DNA of 56,684 bases, taken from Gammaproteobacteria bacterium. GTDB lineage: Bacteria; Pseudomonadota; Gammaproteobacteria; SZUA-229. The notes under the pieces are model-generated. The model had not been told where the DNA came from and searched no databases. It worked only from the letters and a program-made list of their open reading frames with translations. Location of the stretch: the NCBI GenBank assembly GCA_015488295.1, contig WFOC01000084.1:1-56684 (forward strand), in the 5' to 3' direction. Below are positions 3,272-39,606 of the stretch, in pieces. A program made the position numbers and the translations under genes. Each line of letters starts with the position of its first letter. Position 1 is the stretch's first letter.

Positions 3272-3304
3272 AAAAAATACCGCCGTGCCTAGCGGTATTT
3301 TTTA
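3272..3304 (+). terminator. Hairpin plus T-run between norB and norE (intrinsic terminator or attenuator)
   Basis: aataccgc-cgtgccta-gcggtatt followed by tttttt. Confidence 0.55.
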
Positions 3305-3343
3305 TGGTGAATATGAAGACAATGCAAAGGCAATAACATTGAA

Positions 3344-3937: not shown

Positions 3938-3944
3938 CAAACCA

Positions 3945-4220: not shown

Positions 4221-4244
4221 TTCTTATCAACCATTCCACAACCT

Positions 4245-5081: not shown

Positions 5082-5117
5082 AACTGTGCTGACAGCCATC
5101 ATCAACACCGACCAGCC

Positions 5118-5714: not shown

Positions 5715-6004
5715 TGCAAACAGAAAACAAAAAGTTCATCACAAAGCTGTGGCTGCTGCTGATTTCCCTAACCCTGTTCAGCGCCTTCATGGCAGAGCGC
5801 AGCCATCCCGGTCTGCTCAGCGTGCTCATCATGGCTGGCGTGCTGGCCTTCAAGGGACGCATTATTGTGGACTATTTCATGGAACTGAAACAGGCCAACC
5901 CGGTTCTGCGCAAGCTGATGCAAATATATTTTTATGTGATACCGACACTGATTATTTTGAGCTGGCTGTTTCCGCAACAGATTGCCGAATGGACAGCCCT
6001 TTGA
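5711..6004 (+). CDS. Small membrane protein (COX-IV/NorF-like), copy 2
   Basis: Its start overlaps the norE' stop (ATGATG). 97 aa. AFKGRIIVDYFMEL parallels LKAGFIIRDFMGL of copy 1. Confidence 0.55.
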   Translation: MMQTENKKFITKLWLLLISLTLFSAFMAERSHPGLLSVLIMAGVLAFKGRIIVDYFMELKQANPVLRKLMQIYFYVIPTLIILSWLFPQQIAEWTAL

Positions 6005-6040
6005 AAACAACACTGAATTATTTTGCCAGACGAGACATCA

Positions 6041-6241
6041 ATGAAAAATCTGACCTGTAAACATTGTGGTGGCAGCGTTACAGCAGGCGATGAAAACTGC
6101 GCACACTGCGGCATTCCTTTAGCGCCGGATTATGGCAGCTCACCACAAAAAAAATTCAAGCTGTTTTTTATCGGCCTGATCATTTTCTGCCTTGCCATGA
6201 TTCTCTGGCTACCACCGGACTGGAGCCATTTTATCCAATAA
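6041..6241 (+). CDS. Zinc-ribbon (CxxC-N10-CxxC) protein with a C-terminal TM helix
   Basis: MKNLTCKHCGGSVTAGDENCAHCG followed by the hydrophobic stretch LFFIGLIIFCLAMILWL. The ATG at 6041 is preferred over the TTG at 6023. Confidence 0.5.
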   Translation: MKNLTCKHCGGSVTAGDENCAHCGIPLAPDYGSSPQKKFKLFFIGLIIFCLAMILWLPPDWSHFIQ

Positions 6242-6245
6242 AATT

Positions 6246-8099
6246 ATGGAAGAATTCGTCGGAAAAATCTGGGACAGCTTCATCACCAAAAGTGCCAAAC
6301 GGCACTACCCGGAAGCAGTCGTTCACCTGGATGACATACGCCGCACTGCAGGCATTTTCTTTCGTGCGCTGGGCGGTGAAGCCGGCCTGCGCGTGGAAAA
6401 TGCAACCGACTCGGAAATTCATGCCCGGCGCTCCCTGTTGCAGCGCATCGCCGGCACCGGAAAAAAAACACAATACGCCTGGCGTGACGAAGAAACCCTG
6501 CGCCTGCCCGACAGCATCGCACTGTTTCCCGACAAACAACTCAATCATGATCTTTATCTGTGGCTGACGGCGCTCTCGGTCACGCCGGAACCGGATGCAA
6601 AACAACATGCCGACTGGATCAGCAAAAACCAGTATCGCACCCGCAAAACACTGGCGATGTGGCCAGGCTTGCGCAACCATTATCAAAAACTGTTGCAGGC
6701 ACATCTGGCACAGCGTCCACAGCCGGATAAACTTCCCGCACAGGAAGCCCATCAGGAAAAAAGCATCCGTGAAGCGCTGGCAAACCCTGAAAAAAAAGTC
6801 ACACTATCCTACGCCAGACATCCGCCACAACCGGTAACACTGTGGCTGCATCCGGCACCGCCACCACAGGAAATCAACAAAAGCGCACAACTGCATGACC
6901 CCGATCAACCAGAAGCCGATGCCCACCAACAGAACGAGCGCGAGCAGGAAAAAAAGCTGAAACGCAAAAAAGGTGATCGCACTGAAATGCCCGATGGCAA
7001 AGACGGGCTGATGAGTTTTCGCCTGGAAACATTATGGAGCTGGGCGGAGTACACAAAAGTTGATCGCACCAGCGTCGATGATGATGACGATAATGCCAAA
7101 CAGACCGCCGAAGATCTGGACAACATCACGCTTGCCCAGGACAGCGAAACCACCACCGGAAAAATAAAACTCGACCTCGACCTGCCCTCGGAAGAATACG
7201 ACGACATCGTGCTGGATCAGGGCATTCCAGTCGATGAATGGGATTACAAAAAACAACACATGCAAAAAGCCCATTGCCGTTTGCAGGTGATGGCTTCACG
7301 TCATGCTGAAGCAATGGAACTGCCGGCAAAACTGCGTCAGCAGGCACACAAAATTCGTCGCCAGTTTGAAGCCCTGCGCCCGCAAAGACAGTGGCTCAGC
7401 CGACAGAACGAAGGCAGCGAACTCGACCTGGAAAACTACATCACTTTTCTGACCGACCGAAAACACGGCCACGTTAACAGCGACACACCCGTGTATCGCG
7501 ATGTGCGCAATGTCAGCCGCGACCTTTCCTGTTTATTACTCGCCGATCTTTCATTGTCTACCGACGCACACATCAACAATCATGCCCGCGTCATCGATGT
7601 CATTCGCGATTCACTCTACCTGTTTTCAGAAGCCCTGACCGCCACCGGCGACCGCTTTGCGCTGCACGGCTTTTCATCACGCAACCGCAATCACATTCGT
7701 TTCTACAACATCAAGGGTTTCGACGAAAGCTACGACAACAACGTCCGCGGCCACATCAACACCATCCGCCCCGGCTATTACACCCGCATGGGCGCAGCCA
7801 TCCGCCACGCTACACAGTTACTTGCCAAACAGACCAGCAGCCAGAAACTGCTACTCATCCTCACCGACGGCAAACCCAATGACCTGGATAAATACGAAGG
7901 CCGCTACGGCATCGAAGACACCCGCATGGCGGTACTGGAAGCTGAAAAACTCGGTCTGAAACCCTTCTGCGTCACTATCGACGAACACGCCGAAGACTAC
8001 CTGCCCTATCTGTTCGGCAGCCGCTCCTACGCACTGATACACAATGTCGAAGAACTACCGCGTAAATTACCGTTGTTATATTTGAGGTTGACCAGCTAG
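6246..8099 (+). CDS. norD: NorD, VWA-domain partner of NorQ
   Basis: 617 aa. C-terminal VWA/MIDAS-like region (LLLADLSLST ... LLLILTDGKPND) that parallels the CbbO C-terminus (VLLDLSEST ... LILLVTDGEPAD). Confidence 0.85.
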   Translation: MEEFVGKIWDSFITKSAKRHYPEAVVHLDDIRRTAGIFFRALGGEAGLRVENATDSEIHARRSLLQRIAGTGKKTQYAWRDEETLRLPDSIALFPDKQLNHDLYLWLTALSVTPEPDAKQHADWISKNQYRTRKTLAMWPGLRNHYQKLLQAHLAQRPQPDKLPAQEAHQEKSIREALANPEKKVTLSYARHPPQPVTLWLHPAPPPQEINKSAQLHDPDQPEADAHQQNEREQEKKLKRKKGDRTEMPDGKDGLMSFRLETLWSWAEYTKVDRTSVDDDDDNAKQTAEDLDNITLAQDSETTTGKIKLDLDLPSEEYDDIVLDQGIPVDEWDYKKQHMQKAHCRLQVMASRHAEAMELPAKLRQQAHKIRRQFEALRPQRQWLSRQNEGSELDLENYITFLTDRKHGHVNSDTPVYRDVRNVSRDLSCLLLADLSLSTDAHINNHARVIDVIRDSLYLFSEALTATGDRFALHGFSSRNRNHIRFYNIKGFDESYDNNVRGHINTIRPGYYTRMGAAIRHATQLLAKQTSSQKLLLILTDGKPNDLDKYEGRYGIEDTRMAVLEAEKLGLKPFCVTIDEHAEDYLPYLFGSRSYALIHNVEELPRKLPLLYLRLTS

Positions 8100-12813: not shown

Positions 12814-13398
12814 TTATTTCACACCTCTTTCAATCAGATAACTGCTGTACTCCTTATCCGTGCCATTGATATGTTTGATCAGCCAGACCTTGAGAAATTC
12901 AACCGCATTACTCATCGCCGAATCCTGATCATGCTGGTACTCTGATAAAACCTCTTCCACTTTTTTGAACATCTTTTCGTGCTGCACCTTATGATCTTCA
13001 TACCCCGGATAGCCATTGTCGCGCAGCAGGCCTTCCTCATACGTAAAATGCGTTTTGGTGTAGTCAACTAATTCATCCAGCGCTTCCTGTTCGAATTCCC
13101 TGCTGGTCGAATAATCTATCGCTGTTTGCAGCTGGTTGATCAGATTGATCAGTTTTTTATGTTGCTGATCGATGGAATCGATGCCAACACTGTAATCATC
13201 TTTCCATTCGAGATACTGCTCCGATGACCATTTTTTATGCAGAAAGGGAATGAACAGCAGCATTGCTATCAACGCCCATGTGACCGGGCTCGATGGGTTC
13301 ACCAGTAACCCCAGTATAGCGCCGATGATCAACGTCAGAATAAGCAGTGATACACCGAACATACACATTTTTTTATTCTGGCACATCGTTTTTCTCAT
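12814..13398 (-). CDS. Membrane-anchored hemerythrin-like (bacteriohemerythrin) domain protein
   Basis: Two N-terminal TM segments, then WKDDYSVGIDSIDQQHKKLINLINQL ... HF..EE ... H..H.. pattern of hemerythrin. Confidence 0.75.
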   Translation of the reverse strand: MRKTMCQNKKMCMFGVSLLILTLIIGAILGLLVNPSSPVTWALIAMLLFIPFLHKKWSSEQYLEWKDDYSVGIDSIDQQHKKLINLINQLQTAIDYSTSREFEQEALDELVDYTKTHFTYEEGLLRDNGYPGYEDHKVQHEKMFKKVEEVLSEYQHDQDSAMSNAVEFLKVWLIKHINGTDKEYSSYLIERGVK

Positions 13399-20317: not shown

Positions 20318-20423
20318 CATTAAACATGCCGGGCGGTGCGCTCAACCCGGGGTGCACCGGCTGCTGAATATACGCAGGCCGGGCATTGTCTGAAAAAGAT
20401 AACCGGGTATAAACCGGCAAAAA

Positions 20424-20936
20424 CTAGATAAGAATGAATCCCTGCAAGGGGTCGAACTCAATCAACAGGATGTGTGCAGGCTCGATACTCAATTCCCGTT
20501 CAAACACATAATCAAAGCCCGGGTTTCTTACACTGTCATCCATTCTGATTTCCAGCCGGTGTTTGCCGGCAGAGATTTTTTTACTGAAATAAATATCCAC
20601 GCTACCATCGTTAAACAAGCCCGGCGGTTGCATGGTTTCACTGTAAACCAGCTCGCCATCCAGCCTGGCTTCGACTGTAATCGGTGAGCGTTCACGCGGA
20701 CAGTCTTCCGGTTTGCGCATGTTTGGCGGCAGCTTCATCAACTCCTGCTGGCTGAGTTTGCGGCACGGCTCACGAAGCTCGCCGGCATGTGCGAAGGCAA
20801 TGGTGAGCAGACTCTCGTTTTCACCGATAAGACGCACTGATGGCGATGTTGAAAAATACCAGATCAACGCCATGAATACGGTGTAATTAATGACCTGTAA
20901 CAGGTAACGTACCGGTTTGCTGTTCAGCGCGCTCAT
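20424..20936 (-). CDS. N-terminally TM-anchored 170-aa protein, unknown function, translationally coupled to the upstream fusion gene
   Basis: ATGA start/stop overlap at 20936. One TM helix followed by a soluble domain. Confidence 0.6.
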   Translation of the reverse strand: MSALNSKPVRYLLQVINYTVFMALIWYFSTSPSVRLIGENESLLTIAFAHAGELREPCRKLSQQELMKLPPNMRKPEDCPRERSPITVEARLDGELVYSETMQPPGLFNDGSVDIYFSKKISAGKHRLEIRMDDSVRNPGFDYVFERELSIEPAHILLIEFDPLQGFILI

Positions 20937-22495
20937 CAGCTGTTACCTCCCGCACCATCATTTTCAGCAGCCGTAGCTTCGGCCTGTTTTAATTTCGCCA
21001 GCTCGGCCCTGAATTCATCCAGGTCTCTTTCAACTTCATTTTTATCGGTTTCAGCTGCGCCATGCACGCGAATGCGATTTCGGTCAGCACGACCACGAAG
21101 AATGGGTTTACGCTCGCCGGCAAAACGTGCTTTCACCCAGCGGTTACCGAAACGGTAATAACAATCATTGTGTCGACAGCCGGTGACCATAACGCCATCA
21201 GCGCCATTTTTTAAGGCATATTCAACCAGCGTTGGCGGCAACATGCCGCTGCAGATAAGTCGAACGCCTTTGGTTTCATCATCTTCCAGACGACTCACAT
21301 TCAGGCCATGCTCACAGCCGTAAACCAGTATTTTTGTTTCACCGCTTAGCGCCGCTATCGCTTCCCTGGTCTGGGAACGCATTTTATCGACCGGCAACTG
21401 CGGCATGTCGATACCGGTTTTCAGTTCTTCATTACGCGAGCGGAACGGGTTGGAAGACGGGCAGGAACCCGCACAGATTCCGCAGGCCGCACACAGTTCG
21501 GGATTAACCACCACTTCTTTGTCGAACTTCATGCCGTCGGTACGCGCCTGCACGGTAATGGCATCAAACGGACAGTCATCAAAACACAGTTCGCAACCAT
21601 TACAATGTGCAAGATCAACCACCGCTTTGGGACCGTCTTTTTTCGGCGGCAACCACGGCAACATCATCAACAGCCAGGTAATACCGAGGGTAAAGATCCA
21701 CACCTGACCTTCTGTCCAGATGTCGAGCAAGGGATAGATGTTGAGATAAAACCAGTCAAGATGAATGACTTCAGGCATTTTAGTAAGGTCGGCCGGAGCA
21801 TGACTTAATGCAGGTTTATACAGCGATAGTGCAAGCAGGGCCAGCAAGGTGCCAACAGCAAGTCCACGGGGTGGATTGATTTTTACATCGGACAAACGTT
21901 TTACGTGCAGCCACAACATGAACGCCAGCACCAGCGGCTGACCGAGCAGGTGCAGAAATTCGATGAGAATGAAAAAACGGTCGGTCATCTCACCCGCAAC
22001 AAAATTACGCGTCATTGCGCCCGGCAGCAACGGCAAGGCATCCACCAAACGTGCGGAACCGATAGCAATATACTGCGCCATCTCATCCCACACCAGCCAG
22101 TAACCGGTGATACCCAGGGTAACGACAACCCAGAGATTCGGCACCCCGGTCACCCATGAAAACCAGCGGAAACCACGATAACGACCAGAGGCAAATTCCT
22201 TGAACATGTGCAGCAGAATTGTCACCACCACCGCATCCGAGGCATAGCGATGCAGGCTGCGCATAACGCCGCCAGCGTACCACTGCTGATGGGTAATATA
22301 TTCTACCGAGGCATGCGCACCATCAATGCTGCCGTGGAAAGGAATGAACAGGTAAATGCCGGTGATCAAAATCACCCAGAACAGAAAAAAGGATAAAGTA
22401 CCAAGATGGTATAAAGGATTCCATTCCGTGCCAAACGAAATATTGAACCAGGATTCCAGAGCCAGATAGACTCGTTTAACAGGATTGACTAGCAC
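20936..22495 (-). CDS. Fusion protein: dihaem cytochrome b (b/b6 N-terminal type) + 2x[4Fe-4S] ferredoxin + MvhD/FlpD-like domain
   Basis: RSLHRYASD...LLHMFKEF and FLHLLGQ...WLHVKR (four His in two helices). CNGCELCFDDCP and CAACGICAGSCP. C-terminal ILVYGCEHG...LICSGMLPP...VTGCRHNDCYY. GTG start with agga 10 nt upstream. Confidence 0.8.
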   Translation of the reverse strand: MLVNPVKRVYLALESWFNISFGTEWNPLYHLGTLSFFLFWVILITGIYLFIPFHGSIDGAHASVEYITHQQWYAGGVMRSLHRYASDAVVVTILLHMFKEFASGRYRGFRWFSWVTGVPNLWVVVTLGITGYWLVWDEMAQYIAIGSARLVDALPLLPGAMTRNFVAGEMTDRFFILIEFLHLLGQPLVLAFMLWLHVKRLSDVKINPPRGLAVGTLLALLALSLYKPALSHAPADLTKMPEVIHLDWFYLNIYPLLDIWTEGQVWIFTLGITWLLMMLPWLPPKKDGPKAVVDLAHCNGCELCFDDCPFDAITVQARTDGMKFDKEVVVNPELCAACGICAGSCPSSNPFRSRNEELKTGIDMPQLPVDKMRSQTREAIAALSGETKILVYGCEHGLNVSRLEDDETKGVRLICSGMLPPTLVEYALKNGADGVMVTGCRHNDCYYRFGNRWVKARFAGERKPILRGRADRNRIRVHGAAETDKNEVERDLDEFRAELAKLKQAEATAAENDGAGGNS

Positions 22496-22557
22496 GAATA
22501 TTAATTCCTAAAAATAGACGGGGTCGAAATGTTATCACGGTTTGCTAATAAACCAAT

Positions 22558-22571
22558 TTGACTCATATCAA
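22558..22571. promoter_or_regulatory. FNR/DNR-type box TTGACtcatATCAA upstream of the cytochrome b fusion gene
   Basis: Its centre is about 70 nt upstream of the GTG at 22495 (minus strand). Confidence 0.6.
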
Positions 22572-22703: not shown

Positions 22704-23537
22704 TTAGGCGGGTTTTTTACCCTTGTGCAACTCACGCCGCATAAACCAGATAATCGAAAAGATCACTGTAAAGCCAACAAACATTCCTACAAATAATGAG
22801 TAATCAAAATAGTAAGCTCCGGTATGCGGATCGTATGTAGTGCAGAACAGTTTGATTTTGTTGCCCAGACTGGACAGGAAAGTCTGTTCAGGTTGCGGCC
22901 GTCCCAGCACCAGTTCCAGTAATGGATCAACCAGCAACGGGGTCTCGAACACCTGACCGTAAACCTGCCGGTAAACCTTGCTGTCAGCATCAATAACCGT
23001 GGCCTGTATCAAATGATCAAAACCGCTTGATGTCGGGTAATACAAAAAACCCAGTTCTTCCGTCAGTGAGGCAAGGTTTTCTTCATCAATGCTTAACAGG
23101 TGCCAGCCTTTATCGCTGATGCCCTGCATGTTTGCGAAATACTGCATCGCCTCCGGGGTATCAACACGGGTATCAAAACCGATAACAGCGACCGAGAAAC
23201 TATCCTCGCCCAGAGCATCACGCGCTTTTTCTACCACCTTCGAAAGATGCCGGGTCGTCATCGGACAGATCTGATAACAGCTGGTAAAAACCATGCTGAT
23301 AACCAGCGGCTTACCACGAAAATCGCTCAGTGATACCTGCTTGCCTTCTGCATTTGTAAAAACATGATCACCCAGTTTTTTACCGATGGCTGACTGACTG
23401 GTCCTGAGTGCGACATCATAGTCAAATTTCGGCTTGTCCTCGACCACAGGTTTTTTAGTCGACACAAAAGTCACGCCAACCGCGTGCAGGGGAATCAAAA
23501 GCAGCAGAAAGCTGCCGATTAGAAGGCTCAATCGCAT
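22704..23537 (-). CDS. SCO1/SenC-family copper chaperone (thioredoxin fold), copy 1
   Basis: FTSCYQICP (CxxxC) motif, N-terminal signal/anchor, extra C-terminal TM helix. Confidence 0.85.
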   Translation of the reverse strand: MRLSLLIGSFLLLLIPLHAVGVTFVSTKKPVVEDKPKFDYDVALRTSQSAIGKKLGDHVFTNAEGKQVSLSDFRGKPLVISMVFTSCYQICPMTTRHLSKVVEKARDALGEDSFSVAVIGFDTRVDTPEAMQYFANMQGISDKGWHLLSIDEENLASLTEELGFLYYPTSSGFDHLIQATVIDADSKVYRQVYGQVFETPLLVDPLLELVLGRPQPEQTFLSSLGNKIKLFCTTYDPHTGAYYFDYSLFVGMFVGFTVIFSIIWFMRRELHKGKKPA

Positions 23538-23588: not shown

Positions 23589-24452
23589 CTAACCCAATAA
23601 AAAAACGTCAAGTACCGCACCGATTAATAAACAGACCAGTTGCACCAGCGAAGCGAAGAAACTTTTCATCGCCACTTTTGGTGTTGGCTGTTGAATCATC
23701 CGGTAATTTTGGTAAATAAAATAACCGCCACCACTTACCGCGCCGGCAAGGTATAACCAGCTCAGACCGTAGAAAAACGGCAGTATCGATACACCAACCA
23801 GGATAAGGGTGTTACCCAGAACCACAACGGCTGTACGTTTATCACCGATTATCACCGGCAACATCGGCACACCTGCTTTGGCATAATCCTGATGCTTGGC
23901 AATGGCCAGGCTCCAGAAATGCGAAGGTGTCCAGAAAAACAGCACCAGTGCCAGCAGAATTGGAATCGGACTCAGATCCGGATCAACCGCTGCTGCACCT
24001 GCGAGCACAGCAAAGCTGCCCGAAGCGCCGCCAATCACAATATTCATCCAGGTACGGCGTTTTAATAGAACCGTATAAATGATGGCATAAAAGAATGCCC
24101 CCAGAAAAATATAAAGTGCCGCTGCATTATTTAAAAATAACGCCGCAGAACCTACACCGGCTCCCAACAATGCCAGGATAAACACTATCCACAGTGGATT
24201 TTTTCGGAAGCTGCCGGTAACAAAAGGACGGTCTTCTGTCCGTTTCATCACACTGTCAAGATCAACTTCAAAGTACTGATTAAAGGCTCCGGCACTGCCT
24301 GCTGATATCAGCACGGCAAAACACAGAACCAATATCTGTACACCACTGAGTGCCTCTCCCGGTGTTACCACCATGGCAACCAGTGCAGTCAGCATCATAA
24401 TGACACCGATACGCAATTTTAATAGATTGGTTAATTGCTTAAATATATCCAT
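23589..24452 (-). CDS. ctaB: Protohaem IX farnesyltransferase (haem O synthase)
   Basis: UbiA-family pattern and the FFWTPSHFWSLAI motif. Confidence 0.9.
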   Translation of the reverse strand: MDIFKQLTNLLKLRIGVIMMLTALVAMVVTPGEALSGVQILVLCFAVLISAGSAGAFNQYFEVDLDSVMKRTEDRPFVTGSFRKNPLWIVFILALLGAGVGSAALFLNNAAALYIFLGAFFYAIIYTVLLKRRTWMNIVIGGASGSFAVLAGAAAVDPDLSPIPILLALVLFFWTPSHFWSLAIAKHQDYAKAGVPMLPVIIGDKRTAVVVLGNTLILVGVSILPFFYGLSWLYLAGAVSGGGYFIYQNYRMIQQPTPKVAMKSFFASLVQLVCLLIGAVLDVFLLG

Positions 24453-24480: not shown

Positions 24481-24521
24481 AAAAAAACGTGGGACAGAGC
24501 GCTGTCCCTCCCACGTTTTTT
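24481..24521 (-). terminator. Hairpin plus U-run immediately after HCO subunit I (terminator or attenuator before ctaB)
   Basis: aaaaaacgtgggacag...ctgtccctcccacgtttttt. On the minus strand the stem is followed by ttttttt. Confidence 0.6.
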
Positions 24522-24537: not shown

Positions 24538-26271
24538 CTAGCTAATATGCCAGACGGATGCCAGGTAGTCCCAGTTGATGAAGTAATACACCACGAAACA
24601 TACCAGCAGTGCCATCGCAAGAACAAACGTTCCCGGTGCCTCAAAGCCACCATCACCATGTTCTTCCACCGGCTGTTTAGGAGCCATCAGCAGACGCTCA
24701 GGCTGTTCAACGTTGTAAACACCTGCAGCCAGTGGCGCACCAAAGCTCTGCAGCAGACCGGCAGACTCTTCCAGCTTCTTACCAAACAGTAAAGAGCCAA
24801 CAGTTACGATCAGATACATCGCACCGCCAACAACGCCGAGTACACCACCAATCGCACCAACGGCCATCATCATGTAAGCCGTACCAGGGTACTCAAAGCT
24901 TAACATTGCGCCGGTGAAGTCCATGTCCCAGTGACGACGTGATACACCCAGTGTACCCGCACCCAGCATGAACAGAACCATCAGTGTCATACCGCCACCG
25001 AAAACGTAAGGCTGCCATTTAGCCATGGTAGGCAGGAACAGTGCACGTCTGAACAGCAGCGGGATCAACAGATAAGTCAATGCCATGAAGGTCAGTGTGG
25101 TACCGGTTACTACTGTGGCATGGAAATGCGCAGGTACATAAATGGTGTTATGAATGATCAGGTTAATCTGCTCGGTACCCATAACAACACCGGTGATACC
25201 GCCGATGAAGCCAAAGGTGAACAGCGAGATGAAGAAGCCCGAGAATACCGGATTCCCCCACGGTGCCTTACGCAACCATTCGAACAGGCCCTTGGTCAGC
25301 CCTTTTCCGCGCTGCGCAACTTCCATCGCCCCCGGAATGGTCAAACCGTGAATCATACTGGCCAGTACCGCAAGATACATCGCGTAACTGGTGTTGAATA
25401 CTTTCCACTCAGAGCTTACGCCCGGATCAACCAGAATGTGGTGAGCACTGGCTAACTGCAGGAAGAAGATATACAGCAGGAAGGCTGCACGACTTACTTT
25501 CTCTGACATTGGACGAGCGCCAAACAAAACACCGACGATCAGATACCAGACAGCTACGTGTGCGGCAACATTAATCTGCTGCGAAGAGTGACCCAGACCC
25601 CACCAGATTATGCGATACATGGCGGAATCAATATGGTTAATGTAGCCGATAGACCAGAGGAATGTCGGCACCAGGATGATGGCACCACAGGCAATGGTGA
25701 AAACAGCGATAATGGCTGCAGTCAGGGCACCAAAGGTAACCAGTGGAATCGAGCCTTCGTAGGTATTATCCTCCTTGGCGATAACCAGCGTGCCAAAGAA
25801 AACAAACACCGCGATGAGCGCCCCCACCGCAAACAGAATAAGCCCCAGATAGAAATGAGGCTCGGCCTGCATCGGCACATAGGATGTCATCATCACGCTC
25901 GAGTTACCCTGGAATACGGCGACATTGTTCATCACCGCACCGACGAGCATCAGCGCAAAGCCGGTCCATGCCCAGCCCGGTGCCGCCAGTCGCGTGCGCA
26001 ACAGGGTCGAGGAAGCGAAATACAGAATCGCCATTTCAAAGAAGATGATCCAGAAGATCAGTGCGTTAATACCATGTGCCGTCAGCACTTGATAGAACAT
26101 ATCTGCAGGCAGCAGATGTACTTCCTGCCAGCGCGTCAGAACAACACCCAACGCCATAATACCTGCGACCAGTAATGCCACTGCGCCAGCAACAGCATTC
26201 GCCTTCATCAGGCTTTCTGCAGATTTGTCAAAATAGAAGCCCGTGTCCGGGCAAATTCTGAATTGTGCCAT
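24538..26271 (-). CDS. Haem-copper oxidase superfamily subunit I, B-family-like but lacking the cross-link Tyr
   Basis: IWWGLGHSSQQ aligns to ba3-type FWWTGHPIVY. AHH lies 49/50 residues later, followed by AHFHATV. Confidence 0.9.
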   Translation of the reverse strand: MAQFRICPDTGFYFDKSAESLMKANAVAGAVALLVAGIMALGVVLTRWQEVHLLPADMFYQVLTAHGINALIFWIIFFEMAILYFASSTLLRTRLAAPGWAWTGFALMLVGAVMNNVAVFQGNSSVMMTSYVPMQAEPHFYLGLILFAVGALIAVFVFFGTLVIAKEDNTYEGSIPLVTFGALTAAIIAVFTIACGAIILVPTFLWSIGYINHIDSAMYRIIWWGLGHSSQQINVAAHVAVWYLIVGVLFGARPMSEKVSRAAFLLYIFFLQLASAHHILVDPGVSSEWKVFNTSYAMYLAVLASMIHGLTIPGAMEVAQRGKGLTKGLFEWLRKAPWGNPVFSGFFISLFTFGFIGGITGVVMGTEQINLIIHNTIYVPAHFHATVVTGTTLTFMALTYLLIPLLFRRALFLPTMAKWQPYVFGGGMTLMVLFMLGAGTLGVSRRHWDMDFTGAMLSFEYPGTAYMMMAVGAIGGVLGVVGGAMYLIVTVGSLLFGKKLEESAGLLQSFGAPLAAGVYNVEQPERLLMAPKQPVEEHGDGGFEAPGTFVLAMALLVCFVVYYFINWDYLASVWHIS

Positions 26272-26272: not shown

Positions 26273-26812
26273 TTATTTCTCCGTCACAATGATTTTGCCA
26301 AGCATGGTATGGTGGCCAATGCCGCAATATTCGTTACATACAATTGCATAATCGCCCGCCTTGTCAGGGGTCATATTAAAGACCATTTCATAGCCTGGCA
26401 GAACCTGCAGATTAATATTTACCGGCTGCAGAGAAAAACCGTGCTGCCAGTCCATTGAGGTGAGGTGTATACGATACGACTGACCGGATTCAAGCTCAAG
26501 AATTGGATACCACTGCCACAGCCTACCCAGAAGATAAACATCGCTGCCAGCAGGTGGTCGAACAATTGGAATACCAGCTTCTTCGCCGACCTGGTATTTT
26601 TCAACCATGGCATCAACTTCTACCTGAAATTTTGCAGGTGTTGTTTGATAAGCTTCGTTAGAAAGATTTTGTTTTCCATAAATATGCCAGTAAGGCATCA
26701 TAAAAAACATAATTAAACACCAGACCAGTGCGATACCAATCCACACTATCTCCTGTTTACCAACTGGTACGTTCCACCAGATTCGATCCGAAGGGGGTAA
26801 AAATGAAGTCAT
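26273..26812 (-). CDS. HCO subunit II, single-TM cupredoxin with a CuA site
   Basis: WQHGF ... CNEYCGIGHHTM (the H..C.E.C...H..M CuA pattern). One nucleotide separates it from the subunit I start. Confidence 0.85.
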   Translation of the reverse strand: MTSFLPPSDRIWWNVPVGKQEIVWIGIALVWCLIMFFMMPYWHIYGKQNLSNEAYQTTPAKFQVEVDAMVEKYQVGEEAGIPIVRPPAGSDVYLLGRLWQWYPILELESGQSYRIHLTSMDWQHGFSLQPVNINLQVLPGYEMVFNMTPDKAGDYAIVCNEYCGIGHHTMLGKIIVTEK

Positions 26813-26826: not shown

Positions 26827-26988
26827 CTATTCAGCAACGGGGATAGTAGCAACTTCCATAATTCCCCACAAAATGTAGAAAACCGTAGGCATGACTACAC
26901 CAATAAACAGTAACAGGAATGGATTATCAAGCATCCGCTGAAAGAAAGGGATTCTTTCCGTCTTTGGGATATTATCTTCTTGGGACAT
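26827..26988 (-). CDS. Untracked 53-aa single-TM ORF heading the HCO operon (possible small subunit)
   Basis: My translation: MSQEDNIPKTERIPFFQRMLDNPFLLLFIGVVMPTVFYILWGIMEVATIPVAE. A strong aaggag lies 7-8 nt upstream. It falls below the ORF-track length cut-off. Confidence 0.55.
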   Translation of the reverse strand: MSQEDNIPKTERIPFFQRMLDNPFLLLFIGVVMPTVFYILWGIMEVATIPVAE

Positions 26989-27166: not shown

Positions 27167-27456
27167 AAGCCTTTCATCTACTTTAAAAATAACATAAAAA
27201 CAATTGAACTATTTCCTGTGCAAAACAAACCATAGACCCAAACTCCCCGGTTCATGACCTGCATCATGGATAACTATGCCCATAAAGAATAATCTGCATC
27301 TCTGCTGAACATATTTTCCACGAATAACCATACCCAGTTAATGGAAAAAATGCCAGCATATAAATTAAAAACCATTACAATATAACGGTTTTTCACGATG
27401 AATCATAAAATCGTACCAAACAAACAAAGTAACGACTTAAATACAGGAGCCTGTTG

Positions 27457-27933
27457 ATGGCATTAATTGAGTGGCGTAAAGAATTTTGCACGGGCGTTGC
27501 AAGCGTTGATTACGAGCATGAAGAACTCATTAACGAGATCAATGAAATCTATACACTGATTGATGACAACGCCGATAAAGAAAATGTCATCGACAAACTC
27601 GGTGATATTTACGGCAGCATCTCGGCACATTTTGCTCTGGAAGAGCAGATGATGGAAAAGCACGATTACGAACATTTCAAGGAACATCAAGCAGACCACG
27701 AACGTCTGCTGGACGAGATTCAGGAGATTACTGAAGAGTTCGAATCAGCCTCCGGGCTGGACACCGACAAGTTCAAACAAAAACTGAACGACTGGTTTCA
27801 GCTGCATTTCAGCACACACGATGCACGTCTGCACAGACTGGCACACCTGATAGACCACGCACCAGTATGCGAATCAACCATGAAATCCATGATACAAAGC
27901 GCGAAAAATGCCCTGCTACGCAGAACAGGTTGA
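27457..27933 (+). CDS. Soluble hemerythrin-like (bacteriohemerythrin) protein
   Basis: IEWRKEFCTGVASVDYEHEELINEINEIY ... HFALEEQMM ... HQADHERLL ... HFSTHD. Confidence 0.8.
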   Translation: MALIEWRKEFCTGVASVDYEHEELINEINEIYTLIDDNADKENVIDKLGDIYGSISAHFALEEQMMEKHDYEHFKEHQADHERLLDEIQEITEEFESASGLDTDKFKQKLNDWFQLHFSTHDARLHRLAHLIDHAPVCESTMKSMIQSAKNALLRRTG

Positions 27934-27989: not shown

Positions 27990-29048
27990 TTGCAGGAAAC
28001 ACTTTTGTTTAATCCATCTGTCACCGCTAACAAAAACAACAAAGCCATTGCCATCTGGCTACTGATCTGCTGCGCGACTATTTTCGGCATGATTATTCTG
28101 GGCGGCATCACCCGATTAACCGGCTCCGGCCTGTCCATGGTGGAATGGGCACCGATCATGGGCATTCTGCCACCGCTTAATGACCAGGAGTGGCAGCAAG
28201 CCTTTCTGCTCTACCAGCAGTTTCCTGAATACCAGATAAAAAATTTCCACATGTCGGTGCATGATTTCAAATCCATCTTCTGGTTTGAATACGGTCACCG
28301 CCTGCTCGGCCGCTCCATCGGCATCATCTTCCTGCTGCCTTTCCTGTTCTTTCTGTTCAAGGGAAAAATCGAAAAAACACTGACACCAAAACTGATCACC
28401 ATGTTTGTGCTCGGCGGTCTGCAGGGCCTGATGGGCTGGTACATGGTCAAGAGCGGCCTGGTCAACGACCCACGTGTCAGCCAGTATCGTTTAACCGCAC
28501 ACCTCGGCCTGGCCGTGGTGATCTACGCCTATATGCTCTGGGTTGCACTTGTCCTGCTGTATCCAAAAATAAATGAAACCGCGCAGGATTCTGTGCGAAA
28601 ACTTGGCAAGCAGTCGCTGTTCATCACCGGCCTCATTATCATCACCATTCTCAGCGGCGGTTTTGTCGCCGGCACCCACGCAGGTTTTGCCTTCAACACC
28701 TTCCCATTGATGCACGGAAAATTAATTCCCGACGGCCTGTTTGAACTAACGCCACTATGGAAAAACTTTTTTGAAAATATTGTCACCGTACAGTTTGACC
28801 ACCGGGTACTGGCAACATTATTATTTATCGTCATTCCGCTTTTCTGGTTCAAAGCCAGGAAGCTGACATTACATCCGCTGGCCCGCACAGGGTGTCACCT
28901 GTTGCTTGCCGCACTGCTATTACAGATTACGCTTGGTATCAGCACCCTGCTGCTGGTAGTGCCTGTTGCCCTCGGCGCAGCACATCAGGCAGGAGCCATT
29001 GTGCTACTGACCGCAGCATTGTTTGTTAACCAGCAATTACATCGCTAA
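27990..29048 (+). CDS. ctaA: Haem A synthase (COX15/CtaA family)
   Basis: 8-TM-like with EYGHRLLGR, QFDHRVLA and AAHQAGA motifs. TTG start; the exact start is uncertain. Confidence 0.85.
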   Translation: MQETLLFNPSVTANKNNKAIAIWLLICCATIFGMIILGGITRLTGSGLSMVEWAPIMGILPPLNDQEWQQAFLLYQQFPEYQIKNFHMSVHDFKSIFWFEYGHRLLGRSIGIIFLLPFLFFLFKGKIEKTLTPKLITMFVLGGLQGLMGWYMVKSGLVNDPRVSQYRLTAHLGLAVVIYAYMLWVALVLLYPKINETAQDSVRKLGKQSLFITGLIIITILSGGFVAGTHAGFAFNTFPLMHGKLIPDGLFELTPLWKNFFENIVTVQFDHRVLATLLFIVIPLFWFKARKLTLHPLARTGCHLLLAALLLQITLGISTLLLVVPVALGAAHQAGAIVLLTAALFVNQQLHR

Positions 29049-29096: not shown

Positions 29097-29612
29097 ATGA
29101 AAAATTCTCTAAGAAAACCTGTTCTGGCCGCTTTTCTGGCAGTGCTAACCATATTACCCGGCAGCGTTTTTGCACTACAGGCCTCCGACAACACCAGCAT
29201 CTTCGAGGGCTATTATGCCCGTGTCGGTAACAACGGCAGTCCATCAAGAACACTGCACCACAACGTCTACATGAAACTATATGCCAGGGACGGAAAACAG
29301 TGGGTCGCACTTTTGCACATCCCGCTGCCTTACGCTTCCACCATTGATGAAGATGCCGTGATTCCGAAAATTTTTGAAAAGATAGGCAAGCAGTTGCACT
29401 CCAGCTCATTTGTTCGCGATACCTTTGGTTATCTCGATGAAAAAGCCACAGTGCAATTCGAACATTTCGGTTATATGCAGGATAAAATTATTTTCGAATG
29501 CGGCTCACTGTCGCCCTGCACCATCATGCCGGCAGACGGTTACCTGGAGCTGGTAAAACCGGGAATGATTAACGAGCACATCATCAAATACGATCACATC
29601 GTTAACAAATAA
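29097..29612 (+). CDS. Exported 171-aa protein, unknown function
   Basis: Signal peptide MKNSLRKPVLAAFLAVLTILPGSVFA. No recognisable motif. Confidence 0.55.
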   Translation: MKNSLRKPVLAAFLAVLTILPGSVFALQASDNTSIFEGYYARVGNNGSPSRTLHHNVYMKLYARDGKQWVALLHIPLPYASTIDEDAVIPKIFEKIGKQLHSSSFVRDTFGYLDEKATVQFEHFGYMQDKIIFECGSLSPCTIMPADGYLELVKPGMINEHIIKYDHIVNK

Positions 29613-29645: not shown

Positions 29646-30287
29646 ATGACCAGCAAAAAATTACCGATAGGCACGATTGTTATATTCAGTTTTTTTCTGC
29701 TGACAATGGCAGCGGCTTATTTTCTGACCAAGCCACCCGAGCGACCGCCTGAACTTGAAGGCATCATGCGCCCCGACTTCCGCCTGCTGCACCCGTTCAA
29801 ACTCACTGACCAGAACAATCAGGTTTTCGACGAAAAAAGATTACTGGATAAGTGGAGCTTCGTATTTTTTGGTTACACTTCCTGCCCCGACGTATGCCCG
29901 GCAACGCTTTATGTGCTGAGTTCCATTCATGGTTTATTGACCGATGAAAATGGCAAGGCACCCGACGACATGCAGGTGGTCTTTATCTCAGTCGACCCGG
30001 CGCGTGACACCCCGGAAAAACTCGCCAACTACGTCAGCTATTTCAACAGGGATTTTATTGGCGTGACTGCAGATAAAGAAGAAATCGACAAACTGAGTCG
30101 ACAGTTTGGTGCCGGCTATATCCTCGAAGATAAAAAGGCAGACGGTAGCTATAACGTGGCGCACACCAGTGCGATCTTTTTGATTGATCCCTACGGTCGA
30201 CTGGTTGCCACTTTTTCACAGCCGCACCAGGCACCGACCATTACTTCACAGTATAAAAAAATACGGAAATATTTTTCCTGGGATTAA
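29646..30287 (+). CDS. SCO1/SenC-family copper chaperone, copy 2
   Basis: GYTSCPDVCP motif, N-terminal anchor, ...HTSAIFLIDP. Confidence 0.85.
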   Translation: MTSKKLPIGTIVIFSFFLLTMAAAYFLTKPPERPPELEGIMRPDFRLLHPFKLTDQNNQVFDEKRLLDKWSFVFFGYTSCPDVCPATLYVLSSIHGLLTDENGKAPDDMQVVFISVDPARDTPEKLANYVSYFNRDFIGVTADKEEIDKLSRQFGAGYILEDKKADGSYNVAHTSAIFLIDPYGRLVATFSQPHQAPTITSQYKKIRKYFSWD

Positions 30288-30721: not shown

Positions 30722-32098
30722 ATGCTGCCTAACCAATTCGCCATGCTGACCCAGCAGTTCACCCTGCCCGTACCCGATGAATCGGCCAAACGAATGTCTG
30801 CTGGCTGGCTGCTTCTCAGCCTCTCTGCACTGGTCATCGGCGGCCTGTTCACCATTCTGGTGGTGCTTTCGCGCACCCCTTTTTTTCAGGAAATCATACC
30901 CTGGGTTGATTTTTTTCACACCGCGCTGGTCGTGCATGTCGACCTCACCGTACTGGTCTGGTTTGTCGCTTTTTCCGGCGTTTTATGGAGTTACAACAGC
31001 GCCGGAAAATGCCTGCGCTGCGGATGGCTTGCACTGTTTCTGGCCTGCGCCGGTACGCTGATCATCAGCATCTCGCCATTTACCGGCGAGAGTCACCCTC
31101 TGATGAGCAACTATGTTCCGGTCTTGCAAAGCAACACTTTCTTCACTGGTCTGGGACTGTTCGGACTCGGCTTTGCCCTGCTGGTGCTGCGCATGCTGAT
31201 GACCACACTGGCAGAAAAAAACAACAGCGGCGGTGACGTTTTACGCTTCGGCATGTTTATTGCTGTGGTCGCCTCTTTCTTTGCGCTTGCCGCACTGGCG
31301 ATGTCTTACCTTGGCCTGGATAAAAACTTTACCGGCGAAGCCTATTACGACCGCCTGTTCTGGGGCAGTGGCCACATCCTGCAGTTCAACCACACCCAGC
31401 TAATGCTGGTCGCCTGGCTATGGCTGGCCACCGTCAGCGGTGCCTATTTGCGACTGACACCACGCGTGGTACTGATTTTATTTATTCTCGGGCTATCACC
31501 GGTATTGATGGTACCGCTTATTTATATTCTGTTTGATGTCAGCTCCGGCGACCACATGCTCTGGTTTATGCTGATGATGAAATATGGTGGCGCACTGGCC
31601 GCTGTCCCCATCGGTCTGGCAACCACACTGGCTATTTTCGAAAGATGGAAACCAACCCCCGGCTTTGAAATTGAACGCAGCGCACTGATATTTTCCATTC
31701 TGCTGTTCGGTGTTGGCGGCATCATCGGTTTTATGATCAGCGGCAGTGACGTGCGGGTAACCGCGCACTACCACGGCTCCATCGTCGGCGTAACCCTGGC
31801 ATTCATGGGCATGACCTATCACCTGCTGCCGCATCTGGGGTTTCGAAAAATCACCAGCCGCGCCGCCCGCTGGCAACCGGGCATCTACGGCACCGGTCAG
31901 CTGATGCACATCATCGGACTGGCCTGGTCAGGCGGCTATGGCGTACAGCGAAAAACCGCCGGCGCGGATCAGGGACTGGAACAGATCGAACAAATCGCCG
32001 GCATGGGCCTGATGGGACTGGGCGGTTTAATTTCCATCATCGGCGGCATTATTTTTCTGGTGGTAGTTTACAAGGCGATCCGACCGGAAAAAGATTAA
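30722..32098 (+). CDS. Orphan compact haem-copper-oxidase-superfamily-like membrane protein with an altered CuB site
   Basis: FWGSGHILQF (Phe where the cross-link Tyr sits), SSGDHMLWF (Asp-His where His-His is expected), VTAHYHGS (HxH of helix X), upstream FFHTALVVHVD. Confidence 0.6.
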   Translation: MLPNQFAMLTQQFTLPVPDESAKRMSAGWLLLSLSALVIGGLFTILVVLSRTPFFQEIIPWVDFFHTALVVHVDLTVLVWFVAFSGVLWSYNSAGKCLRCGWLALFLACAGTLIISISPFTGESHPLMSNYVPVLQSNTFFTGLGLFGLGFALLVLRMLMTTLAEKNNSGGDVLRFGMFIAVVASFFALAALAMSYLGLDKNFTGEAYYDRLFWGSGHILQFNHTQLMLVAWLWLATVSGAYLRLTPRVVLILFILGLSPVLMVPLIYILFDVSSGDHMLWFMLMMKYGGALAAVPIGLATTLAIFERWKPTPGFEIERSALIFSILLFGVGGIIGFMISGSDVRVTAHYHGSIVGVTLAFMGMTYHLLPHLGFRKITSRAARWQPGIYGTGQLMHIIGLAWSGGYGVQRKTAGADQGLEQIEQIAGMGLMGLGGLISIIGGIIFLVVVYKAIRPEKD

Positions 32099-36981: not shown

Positions 36982-37962
36982 TTACTGGCACTTCCCGGCT
37001 TTAACTTTTTCAGGCTTTCGCTCGACCAGCGGCTGCTGCAACATATCCTTGCCCTGCTGCAATAAAAAGTCCAGAAAAGTACGCGACACCAGCGACAGCT
37101 TCTTGCCCTCCAGATGCACCGCATACCAGCGGTAAAACAAGGGAAAACCCTTCACATCCAGCACCGCAATTTGCTTGTGCTCCAGCTCCAGACGCAGATT
37201 ATGCCGCGACAAAACCGAAATACCCAGCCCGGCCATTACCGCCTGCTTGATCGCCTCACTGCTGCCCAGCTCCATATAAGGATTAATGGTCAACCCCTGC
37301 TCAAGGAACAAACGGTGAATCGCCTGCCGCGTGCCGGAACCTGCCTCACGTACCAGAAACCGTTCTTCATGCAACTGCTGCAGTGTAATATCCGAACATT
37401 TTGTCAACGGGTGATTCACGTTGGCCACCACCACCAGCTCATTATCAACAAAGTGCTGCGCCACCACATCCAGCTCTTCCGGCACCTGCCCCATGATCAG
37501 CAGATCATCCTCATTGGACTTCAGGCGTTCCAGCACGCGCGAACGATTGGTGACTTTCAGTATCGGCTGCACTTCCGGGTATTGTGCGATAAAAGCACCC
37601 AGCAGGTGCGGCATAAAATACTTGGCCGTGGTAATCACCGCGATGCGCAGCGGGCCTTTTACGACCGTACCCAGCTCGGTAGTAACCTCGCCCAGCGCCA
37701 CCATGCGCTCAAGTATATCCTGCGCAGCAGCATAAACTTCTGCACCGGCAACAGTCGGATGCACGCGGCGGCCAACCTGCTCCAGCAAGGGATGACCAAT
37801 AGCCTCATTCAGTTTTTTAATCTGCATGGAAATGGTAGGCTGGGTAAGGTGTAACTCTTCTGCAGCGCGGGTATAGCCGCCGAGGCGCACCACCGCTTCA
37901 AAGATTTGCATCTGGCGTAAAGTTACGTGGCGAATAAGGTTTTCAGCTGTTGCATAAATCAT
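36982..37962 (-). CDS. cbbR: LysR-family regulator divergent from cbbL (CbbR)
   Basis: N-terminal HTH (YTRAAEELHLTQPTISMQIKKLNE) and divergent arrangement with cbbLS. Confidence 0.85.
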   Translation of the reverse strand: MIYATAENLIRHVTLRQMQIFEAVVRLGGYTRAAEELHLTQPTISMQIKKLNEAIGHPLLEQVGRRVHPTVAGAEVYAAAQDILERMVALGEVTTELGTVVKGPLRIAVITTAKYFMPHLLGAFIAQYPEVQPILKVTNRSRVLERLKSNEDDLLIMGQVPEELDVVAQHFVDNELVVVANVNHPLTKCSDITLQQLHEERFLVREAGSGTRQAIHRLFLEQGLTINPYMELGSSEAIKQAVMAGLGISVLSRHNLRLELEHKQIAVLDVKGFPLFYRWYAVHLEGKKLSLVSRTFLDFLLQQGKDMLQQPLVERKPEKVKAGKCQ

Positions 37963-37965
37963 AGA

Positions 37966-37982
37966 TAAAGCTCTATACTTTA
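37966..37982. promoter_or_regulatory. LysR-type T-N11-A dyad TAAAG-N7-CTTTA in the cbbR-cbbL intergenic region
   Basis: Perfect 5-bp inverted arms 4 nt from the cbbR start codon. Confidence 0.5.
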
Positions 37983-38085
37983 AATAGAAACTATTGATTT
38001 TTATTTATACCGGGGTTTTAGCATAATGTCCACCACGCGGTTACCACCGCGCCATAACTCATTTATTGAATCACTGGAGAACACA

Positions 38086-39504: not shown

Positions 39505-39606
39505 GATCTCACAGGTCATTTAGTCATTGGCAGGGTGCGCATACACAGTACTGTCGCACTCTGCTGACTAATAACACATATACAAATATTTATTTGGAGC
39601 AATAAA

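Follow-up and report, generated by a model that had tools for sequence, protein, structure and literature searches.

A Rieske-less cytochrome b–iron-sulfur fusion and its partner protein are near-obligate companions of the nitric oxide reductase eNOR

A contig of 56,684 nucleotides from a Gammaproteobacteria bacterium (WFOC01000084.1 of GenBank assembly GCA_015488295.1; hereafter the window) carries two neighbouring genes, of which the first (FUS) encodes a 519-residue fusion of a cytochrome b with iron-sulfur (Fe-S) domains, and the second (PAR) encodes a 170-residue partner protein. Analysis of the two genes revealed that FUS/PAR is a dedicated companion of the nitric oxide (NO) reductase eNOR, a near-obligate member of the eNOR operon that is encoded directly after an eNOR-specific copper chaperone of the Sco type. 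As the pair stands almost always beside eNOR, this enzyme probably depends on it for its assembly or its electron supply. We tentatively propose that FUS/PAR might act as a transmembrane reductase serving the Sco-dependent maturation or maintenance of eNOR. The enzyme eNOR was demonstrated to be a genuine NO reductase only in 2024 and is thought to be responsible for a sizeable share of environmental N2O. A large and conserved redox protein is thus nearly constant in its operons, and is publicly misnamed and uncharacterised. A sequence-only reading of the window had regarded FUS as a free-standing conduit between gene clusters, a placement that is replaced here by near-obligate membership of the eNOR operon.

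The eNOR operon of the window

The operon is encoded on the minus strand, to which all coordinates in this section refer, and its transcript runs from 5' to 3' through a 53-residue open reading frame (ORF), eNOR subunit II, eNOR subunit I, CtaB, Sco, FUS and PAR. The first gene (26827..26988), directly 5' of the subunit II gene, encodes a protein with a single transmembrane (TM) helix. Equivalents of 48-53 residues were found in four related loci (L001, L082, L084 and L085), and the protein is likely a small eNOR subunit. Subunit II (26273..26812; 179 residues), assigned from its sequence and by Pfam and NCBIfam, carries the CuA motif CNEYCGIGHHTM and shows NCBIfam similarity to SoxA. Subunit I (24538..26271; 577 residues), assigned by Pfam and alignment, possesses the motif WWGLGHSSQQIN with Gln in place of the cross-link Tyr, and its GHSSQQ segment aligns to GHPVVY of the B-family oxidase. 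A Gln at the position of the cross-linked Tyr is diagnostic of eNOR, and sNOR has Asn there (Table A4, PMC8756737). Judged by this residue, the oxidase adjacent to FUS is of the eNOR type and not the sNOR-like enzyme for which it had previously been taken.

Subunit I is followed by the haem O synthase CtaB (23589..24452; CtaB/UbiA family by Pfam) and by a Sco/SenC-type copper chaperone (22704..23537; Pfam) of 277 residues with a CxxxC motif, a His and an extra C-terminal TM helix. Between subunit I and ctaB lies a strong terminator-like hairpin, GGGACAGCGCTCTGTCCC, with a T-run (24491..24508), which may attenuate transcription of the accessory genes. FUS (20936..22495) and PAR (20424..20936) complete the operon, and a second terminator-like hairpin with a T-run is found just 3' of the PAR stop codon (20402..20418). 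The haem A synthase CtaA is encoded outside the operon at 27990-29048, and CtaB inside it. NO reductase activity and haem As, which fills both haem sites, have been demonstrated only for the eNOR of Rhodothermus marinus; this enzyme was purified as two subunits and was active with artificial donors, and ctaA is common in eNOR operons, with ctaB often present too (PMC11214002).

FUS and PAR accompany eNOR across phyla

Related loci were collected from two sides. A 12-sequence FUS alignment searched against the GTDB species genomes gave 493 relatives, the best 80 of which, together with one Mb-scale contig, form a genomic set of 81 loci, and an alignment of eNOR subunit I returned 80 loci from metagenomes. 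Among the genomic loci with at least 4.5 kb of upstream sequence, an eNOR-type subunit I lies upstream of the fusion gene in 58 of 63. The coupling is equally strong in the other direction: FUS was found downstream and on the same strand in 39 of the 42 metagenomic eNOR loci that extend at least 2.5 kb downstream, with Sco in nearly all cases immediately before it. The motif GH[ST][SA]QQ is present in 62 of 63 large subunit I genes (genomic loci and window) and the Gln motif in all 80 metagenomic eNOR loci. The same operon was found in distant loci, both Spirochaetia-like and of other lineages. Therefore, such genes are near-universal in eNOR operons across phyla, and the instance in the window is typical of its clade.

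The position of FUS within the operon is also constant. Sco is encoded immediately 5' of at least 84 of about 136 fusion genes, and most of the others show a gap of the size of a Sco gene; the distance between Sco and FUS in related loci is often only 0-30 nt. The gene order is COX1-CtaB-Sco-FUS-PAR in Pseudomonadota and COX1-Sco-FUS/PAR-CtaB elsewhere, so that in the non-proteobacterial clade FUS stands between Sco and CtaB. The adjacency of Sco and FUS is thus kept although CtaB relocates. Comparison of 42 loci with the window proteins yields median identities of 66% for COX1, 63% for COX2, 56% for CtaB, 50% for FUS, 48% for Sco and 39% for PAR. FUS and Sco fall well below COX1 and COX2, indicating that FUS diverges like the assembly factors and not like the catalytic subunits.

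Genes frequently found 3' of the fusion or its partner encode a bacteriohemerythrin (15 loci, after PAR) and a haem-copper-oxidase-like protein of about 460 residues (20 loci), and NosR/NirI-like genes are also present in fusion loci. Tandem canonical copies of FUS occur in L069, L070 and L075, and L020 carries an uninformative orphan copy amid housekeeping genes.

Architecture of the fusion protein

FUS begins with a GTG codon, with AGGA 5' of it, and combines cytochrome b helices A-F, two [4Fe-4S] clusters and an MvhD-like [2Fe-2S] domain. Residues 26-199 (21899..22420, minus strand, as are all FUS and PAR features below) form a four-helix dihaem core of the cytochrome b6 type, defined by Pfam and by alignment to b6. 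This part matches the Pfam family Cytochrome_B (PF00033) with 60.5 bits against a cut-off of 27.2, and FUS matches PF13631 with 44.7 bits against a cut-off of 27. In NCBIfam, FUS matches the b-type cytochrome ExtP (E 4e-28) and SoxC (E 1.3e-9), and cytochrome b6 was also matched. The core is followed by helices E and F (21653..21868), which resemble subunit IV and carry HLDWFY, a motif of the Qo type, at residues 245-250, as seen from a Foldseek comparison and from a weak NCBIfam match of residues 216-291 to the subunit-IV-like ExtQ; the naming of the Qo motif follows PMC4122944. Residues 291-347 (21455..21625) contain two ferredoxin-type [4Fe-4S] motifs, CNGCELCFDDCP and CAACGICAGSCP, both of which match Fer4 above the curated Pfam cut-offs. 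The MvhD/FlpD-like domain spans residues 385-502 (20990..21343) with Cys394, Cys415, Cys440 and Cys445, as located by Pfam and an MvhD alignment; residues 407-502 match FlpD/MvhD (PF02662) with 61.2 bits against a cut-off of 22.3. The best NCBIfam match of residues 287-506 is the C-terminal ferredoxin and MvhD part of HdrA2 (E 1e-28).

The AlphaFold2 model of FUS (pLDDT 93.5, pTM 0.90) shows a single body in which six long helices precede an Fe-S part of alpha/beta structure. TM helices were taken from the secondary structure of the models, as a hydropathy scan missed helices B and C of FUS and the TM helix of PAR. Superposition of the FUS model on bc1 cytochrome b using Foldseek (E ~1e-8, about 285-345 columns) covers the core through helix F. 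The His spacing is of the b6 type and gives a gap-free alignment to Chlamydomonas cytochrome b6 (1q90_B), in which no haem-ci Cys is present in FUS, the position of b6 Cys35 being occupied by His30. In the MvhD domain, the Cys residues and the CSG and GCxxxDCxY motifs align with those of the solved MvhD chains 9sw2_D and 5odc_D.

The putative ligands were compared in 47 representative homologues that share 28-47% identity with the window protein. The haem ligands His82/His96 of helix B and His182/His197 of helix D are invariant, as are all eight ferredoxin Cys residues (298, 301, 304 and 308; 335, 338, 341 and 345) and Cys394 and Cys415 of the MvhD domain. Cys440 is kept in at least 90% of the homologues, and Cys445 in most, being not universal in the distant ones. 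In addition, Asp247 of HLDWFY and the Trp136-Asp137 loop are each kept in at least 90%. Profile searches, model and fold comparison thus bear out the three modules that had been read from the ORF, including its homology to cytochrome b and MvhD, and the four His and the Cys motifs proved to be conserved apart from the partial loss of Cys445. More than 5800 FUS homologues share this length and architecture, some of them on Mb-scale contigs, so a mis-assembled join of separate genes is ruled out.

Therefore, the core of FUS is a Rieske-less bc-type cytochrome b of six helices that holds two b haems and, towards the periplasm, a Qo-type pocket. Inserted behind helix F is a cytoplasmic chain of two [4Fe-4S] clusters and an MvhD-like [2Fe-2S] cluster. 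The conservation of the pocket argues that a quinone still binds on the periplasmic side. No gene for a Rieske protein or a cytochrome c1/f was found in the window operon or in the conserved block of the related loci, indicating that FUS does not belong to a bc1 or b6f complex.

PAR is a split-off part of the same protein

PAR starts with ATG, and its junction with FUS, gcGGAGGtaacagcTGATGagc, reads TGATG. The stop and start codons thus overlap by one nucleotide and not as the ATGA assumed before. A Shine-Dalgarno sequence, GGAGG, lies 9 nt upstream inside FUS, and together with the overlap it implies translational coupling of the two genes. The functional coupling of the fusion with the 170-residue ORF is supported, PAR being present in 74 of 77 genomic fusion loci. 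About 610 PAR homologues were found, all without names and all on contigs that also carry FUS.

A search of 1.84 billion cluster representatives gave 500 clusters of the FUS family at E<1e-30, many of which are 690-720 residues long. Among the 150 best representatives, more than 60 are matched by PAR over their C-terminal ~150 residues (e.g., P0245, E 8e-41). This in-frame fused form of about 700 residues was seen in Verrucomicrobiota, Myxococcota, Methylomirabilota and Spirochaetia, and fused genes of at least 640 residues account for 32 of the 41 fusion genes in the metagenome sample; the split two-gene form is typical of Pseudomonadota. By these matches, PAR is the split-off C-terminal part of the FUS family, and FUS and PAR together constitute one split protein.

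The AlphaFold2 model of PAR (pLDDT 82) consists of one TM helix (residues 7-30) and, C-terminal to it, a beta-sandwich. As the fused form places the helix after the cytoplasmic MvhD domain, the sandwich has to lie in the periplasm. Three polar residues of the helix, Gln14, Asn17 and Tyr18, are invariant. Cys58 and Cys79 of the sandwich are jointly present or jointly absent in distant homologues, which fits a disulfide. PAR is thus TM-anchored as had been noted, but a conserved helix and a conserved periplasmic domain do not agree with the description of it as motif-free. PAR gave no Pfam family even at E<=10, no NCBIfam match and no structure in the PDB below E 0.01, and fold searches gave nothing past a generic beta-sandwich. 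The PAR helix probably corresponds to helix G of subunit IV, in which case the Fe-S module would be an insertion in the F-G loop.

Paralogues with exchanged cytoplasmic modules

An extra paralogue is encoded in Gallionellaceae, some Burkholderiales and some Gammaproteobacteria, in which the cytochrome b is joined to an NqrF/PDR-like module (Fer2+FAD_binding_6+NAD_binding_1) instead of the FeS/MvhD part. Paralogues with either Fer2+FAD+NAD or flavodoxin+FAD+NAD modules were found in L067 (5618-7552), L048, L058, L060, L063, L064, L050 and L168 (7001-9484). The second copy in L168, a paralogue of the CPR type, follows PCuAC-CtaG-Sco. P0275, from another lineage, bears a CPR-like flavodoxin+FAD+NAD module on the same cytochrome b, and a NuoF-like gene lies between two FUS copies in L082 (6724-8019). 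Modules of the Fer2+FAD+NAD and CPR-like types oxidise NAD(P)H and pass the electrons on. Their presence in the paralogues is an argument for a cytoplasmic origin of the electrons that reach the b haems. The wiring of a dihaem cytochrome b to an Fe-S chain therefore stands as originally read, but the proposed flow from the quinone pool to the cytoplasm is put in doubt: the paralogues suggest input from the cytoplasm rather than from the quinone pool inward.

A preprint of May 2026 on Ferrigenium straubiae describes two genes of this kind, 2878407319 and 2878407323, in an eNOR operon (bioRxiv 10.64898/2026.01.22.701106). That operon is of the same type as the Gallionella loci L048, L060, L063 and L067, with eNOR II, eNOR I, haem O synthase and Sco1.

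In one called protein, P0349, a Sco domain is joined to the cytochrome b. No in-frame fusion of Sco or COX1 with the cytochrome b was found in 165 loci. The apparent COX1-cytochrome b fusion P0319 is probably a frameshift artefact, as its locus has overlapping broken gene calls, and it was not used.

Regulation

A DNR/FNR-type box, TTGATatgaGTCAA, is located upstream of FUS (22558..22571, minus strand) with its centre about 69 nt 5' of the GTG start. Inspection revealed a candidate extended -10 element (TGaTAACAT, 22529-22537, minus strand), the spacing of which suits a class II promoter. In the window, TTGAYN4RTCAA has four matches compared to 0.46 expected, and none of 100 shuffles gave as many as four. 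The other three boxes are found before norC (1310-1323), between a hemerythrin gene and nirE (13656-13669) and before the eNOR operon, 5' of the 53-residue ORF (27153-27166). Each of the four is placed in a promoter region for denitrification genes, and together they mark a regulon of norCB, nir/haem d1, FUS and the eNOR operon. A Crp/Fnr-family regulator encoded at 9225-9911 has no N-terminal Cys cluster and looks DNR/NNR-like, not FNR-like. Together with the four boxes, this points to control by NO or low O2, which is plausible for FUS on these sequence grounds. Among the 81 loci, the box was found upstream of FUS in 11 and upstream of the subunit II gene (COX2) in 39. Thus, the FNR-type box of FUS exists as described and makes the suggested anaerobic or NO induction plausible in the window, but neither the box nor such control by it is general in the family.

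Proposed role of FUS/PAR

We propose, as a tentative model, that FUS/PAR is a transmembrane reductase for the Sco-dependent maturation or maintenance of eNOR. FUS/PAR would conduct electrons across the membrane from the cytoplasm to the periplasmic face. A cytoplasmic donor would feed the Fe-S chain, at the place held in the paralogues by NAD(P)H-oxidising flavoprotein modules, and the electrons would pass from haem bH to haem bL for delivery at the periplasmic face. There, they might keep copper and/or Sco reduced for the assembly and upkeep of the CuA site of eNOR, and the active-site metal of eNOR is possibly served as well. The beta-sandwich of PAR would probably cap the docking site of the Rieske head, or dock Sco. 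FUS/PAR would then be an eNOR-specific assembly and maintenance reductase, comparable to CcoG for cbb3, NosR for NosZ and the eukaryotic FRE/STEAP proteins. An assembly role is supported by the adjacency of Sco, the context of assembly genes, the divergence resembling that of assembly factors and the two-subunit composition of R. marinus eNOR. If it is an assembly reductase, FUS/PAR would represent the eNOR counterpart of CcoG and NosR and a new bc-type transmembrane electron route for metal-centre maturation.

Several observations weigh against this proposal. Conservation of the Qo-type motif speaks for a continued need to bind quinone, which a pure metalloreductase would not have. We know of no precedent for electron transfer from a haem to a disulfide. 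The periplasmic domain of PAR has no conserved set of redox or metal ligands and resembles neither FixG_C nor PCuAC nor cupredoxins in Pfam or in structure. Arguments from gene order and evolutionary rate are soft, and the link between Sco and cytochrome b seen in P0349 is weak because only one metagenomic gene call shows it. The FUS/PAR pair adjoins nirS with no eNOR nearby in three Magnetococcales loci. The two-subunit eNOR comes from R. marinus, which is not among the named FUS matches and may lack the gene. Finally, the two Ferrigenium proteins are abundant enough for detection in a proteome, which also fits a respiratory subunit.

The main rival, which we consider only slightly less likely, is that FUS is the respiratory electron partner of eNOR within a Rieske-less supercomplex. 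Three versions were considered: quinol might be oxidised at the Qo-type site and its electrons passed to eNOR, as by SoxC in SoxABCD of Sulfolobus; electrons of NAD(P)H or ferredoxin might be fed outward to CuA; or quinol electrons might be split between eNOR and the cytoplasmic Fe-S chain, with NO reduction driving the formation of low-potential reductant, which corresponds to the quinol:NAD+ oxidoreductase of the Ferrigenium preprint. A partnership of this kind agrees with the two-way linkage of at least 90% to eNOR and with the conservation of the Qo motif, the Trp-Asp loop and the four His. The NCBIfam similarity of the cytochrome b to SoxC/ExtP, and of eNOR subunit II to SoxA, points in the same direction, as do the NAD(P)H-linked paralogues and the NuoF-like neighbour. 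In addition, there are many lithoautotrophs among the hosts, for which reverse electron flow is a necessity. The proteome of Ferrigenium grown autotrophically under denitrifying conditions contained both proteins, and a supercomplex is proposed in the preprint (bioRxiv 10.64898/2026.01.22.701106). However, the CuA site of eNOR is intact, which is typical of enzymes with cytochrome c or cupredoxin donors, and no redox cofactor in the periplasm bridges the gap from haem bL to CuA. Purification of the R. marinus enzyme gave two subunits (PMC11214002), and FUS sits among assembly genes and diverges like them. The third version, as a Rieske-less bifurcating supercomplex of the Qo type, would send one quinol electron through CuA to NO and the other through the b haems to the Fe-S chain or to the FAD/NAD(P) modules of the paralogues. 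We consider this unlikely, and by our reasoning moving an electron inward against the membrane potential and then reducing NAD+ is thermodynamically demanding. If FUS is an electron partner, models of the energy yield and electron supply of eNOR denitrification would change, especially for iron- and sulfur-oxidising autotrophs; if the bifurcating version were true, NO reduction would directly yield low-potential reductant for CO2 fixation in lithoautotrophic denitrifiers.

It is improbable that FUS feeds electrons to the O2-dependent haem A synthase CtaA at low O2, with bacteriohemerythrin supplying the O2. In mitochondria, ferredoxin and ferredoxin reductase serve Cox15, and the ferredoxin-like and oxygenase-reductase-like modules of the family (Fer2+FAD+NAD and CPR-like) would fit such a function. 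Both haem sites of eNOR are occupied by haem As, and ctaA and ctaB are frequent in eNOR operons (PMC11214002). CtaB is part of the operon in the window, CtaA and a hemerythrin are encoded just upstream, and a hemerythrin gene follows PAR in 15 loci. Nevertheless, FUS tracks eNOR and not haem A, as it was not seen with genes of A-family oxidases, and CtaA is present in the locus for only 28 of 82 sources (the 81 loci and the window). The immediate neighbour of FUS is Sco, not CtaA, and in Ferrigenium two Cox15 genes are located in other parts of the genome.

We likewise give little credence to FUS as a stand-alone oxidoreductase that is only co-regulated with eNOR and transfers electrons from NAD(P)H or ferredoxin to quinone, or from quinol to a cytoplasmic acceptor. 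Such an enzyme might balance redox carriers or act against cytoplasmic nitrosative stress, e.g., by reducing a di-iron protein of the hemerythrin type. A dihaem cytochrome b with a cytoplasmic Fe-S wire and a conserved quinone pocket follows the logic of NarI/NarH, and the box of its own in the window, the separate site beside nirS in Magnetococcales and the hemerythrin often encoded downstream would all be compatible with this. However, it leaves the specificity for eNOR over cNOR, sNOR and other denitrification enzymes unexplained, with cNOR also encoded in the window, as well as the fixed position after Sco.

The publicly annotated role as an iron-sulfur subunit of a hydrogenase or heterodisulfide reductase, in which we place practically no belief, rests on names that stem from the FlpD/MvhD domain match ('hydrogenase iron-sulfur subunit', 'F420-reducing hydrogenase delta subunit/ferredoxin'); with no hydrogenase or Hdr gene in the window, in the Pfam-annotated loci or recurrent across the 81 genomic loci, and with hosts that are denitrifying Pseudomonadota and others, the first name is a domain-derived misnomer.

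FUS was also compared with orf1/CbaD of the norSY-senC-orf1 cluster of ammonia oxidisers (PMC3475470), which does not fit, as orf1 encodes a six-TM protein of about 190 residues and the enzyme of the window has Gln, not Asn. Whichever function of FUS/PAR applies, the pair provides a better genomic marker set for eNOR systems.

Other genes of the window

Beyond the eNOR operon, a gene at 30722..32098 (plus strand) encodes a haem-copper-oxidase-like protein of 458 residues, COX1_small, with 26% identity to eNOR subunit I. The His ligands of the haems and the first His of CuB are retained in it, but the HH pair of helix VII is missing, indicating that it has no CuB/FeB site; it gave no NCBIfam match. 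COX1_small stands beside the eNOR operon in 31 of the 41 metagenomic loci with enough upstream sequence, and operons outside Pseudomonadota begin with it. The 'eNOR scaffold protein', for which the Ferrigenium preprint gives no gene ID, is probably COX1_small. Bacteriohemerythrin genes are located at 27454..27933 (plus strand), beside CtaA (27990..29048), and at 12814..13398 (minus strand). A role of the hemerythrin in NO handling or in providing O2 to haem A synthesis is possible. A secreted protein of 171 residues with no family match (29097..29612, plus strand) is encoded between CtaA and a second Sco, of the canonical type (29646..30287).

A complete cNOR cluster (1403..8099, plus strand) comprises norC, norB, two COX3-like norE genes, norQ and norD. 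With both this cluster and eNOR encoded in the window, the organism has two NO reductases. An SCP2-domain protein (48335..48832, plus strand) and two proteins of the U32 peptidase family (51392..52321 and 52440..53447, minus strand) resemble UbiT, UbiU and UbiV. Genes of this kind, for O2-independent ubiquinone biosynthesis, fit anoxic respiration with ubiquinone. The regions 36982..43639 and 45342..46592 encode a LysR regulator, the large subunit of form I RuBisCO, CbbQ and a CbbO-like VWA protein, which indicate an autotroph. An NnrS gene is located nearby, and an IS481-family transposase is found at 55508..56638.

Comparison with known systems

FUS shares with cytochrome b of the b6f and bc1 complexes the fold of helices A-F, four His with b6-type spacing, the Trp-Asp loop and the Qo-type motif. 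However, an Fe-S module of about 230 residues follows helix F, and the seventh helix is encoded by a separate gene. Similarly, the homology to MvhD and HdrA2 is evident from the sequence and the conserved Cys ligands, but FUS has no hydrogenase, HdrA flavoprotein or HdrBC partner, and its ferredoxin and MvhD module is tethered to a membrane cytochrome. SoxC of Sulfolobus SoxABCD is comparable in being a homologue of bc-type cytochrome b that works with a haem-copper enzyme of the B type in the absence of a Rieske protein; the two systems differ in that SoxA lacks CuA, which eNOR subunit II has, and SoxC lacks the Fe-S extension.

The likeness to CcoG, NosR/NirI and FRE/STEAP/NOX is functional only and lies in the input from cytoplasmic Fe-S clusters or NAD(P)H-flavin modules and in the service to one client metalloenzyme or in transmembrane metal reduction. 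The genes of CcoG and NosR cluster with those of their client enzymes. CcoG and NosR/NirI are devoid of b haems, and the reduction of Cu by CcoG takes place in the cytoplasm. No homology of the CcoG/NosR type, including the FixG_C Ig-like domain, was found for the PAR family by sequence or fold.

The architecture of FUS had been regarded as without a characterised counterpart, which holds for function, but the architecture itself is already recorded. Kao and Hunte (2014) named a PDWF-FeS clade of cytochrome b that has no Rieske gene alongside, and reported a sister branch in Alicycliphilus denitrificans with cytochrome b fused to ferredoxin and a flavin reductase (PMC4122944). Members of the clade have the identical arrangement of a cytochrome b with an x-D-W-F Qo motif, 4Fe-4S clusters and MvhD. 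The clade was presented as a phylogenetic note, with no function, no link to eNOR and no C-terminal TM helix and beta-sandwich, and the window differs from that description in its split, two-gene proteobacterial form. The eNOR paper (PMC11214002) mentions, among these operon genes, ctaA only. In the Ferrigenium preprint, the two genes are called 'rather unusual' and possible markers of Ferrigenium, and a quinol:NAD+ oxidoreductase supercomplex is proposed; the wide distribution reported above shows that such genes are not specific to Ferrigenium. One of the two Ferrigenium proteins combines cytochrome b with FeS, FAD and NADH modules and the other combines cytochrome b with FeS. The latter is the counterpart of FUS in the window, which has no FAD/NADH paralogue. 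Therefore, with the PDWF-FeS clade and the preprint preceding it, the window gene is a new member of a recorded, uncharacterised clade, to which the present analysis adds the two-way coupling with eNOR across phyla, the identity of PAR, the fixed adjacency to Sco, the census of exchanged modules and the DNR/FNR regulon of the window.

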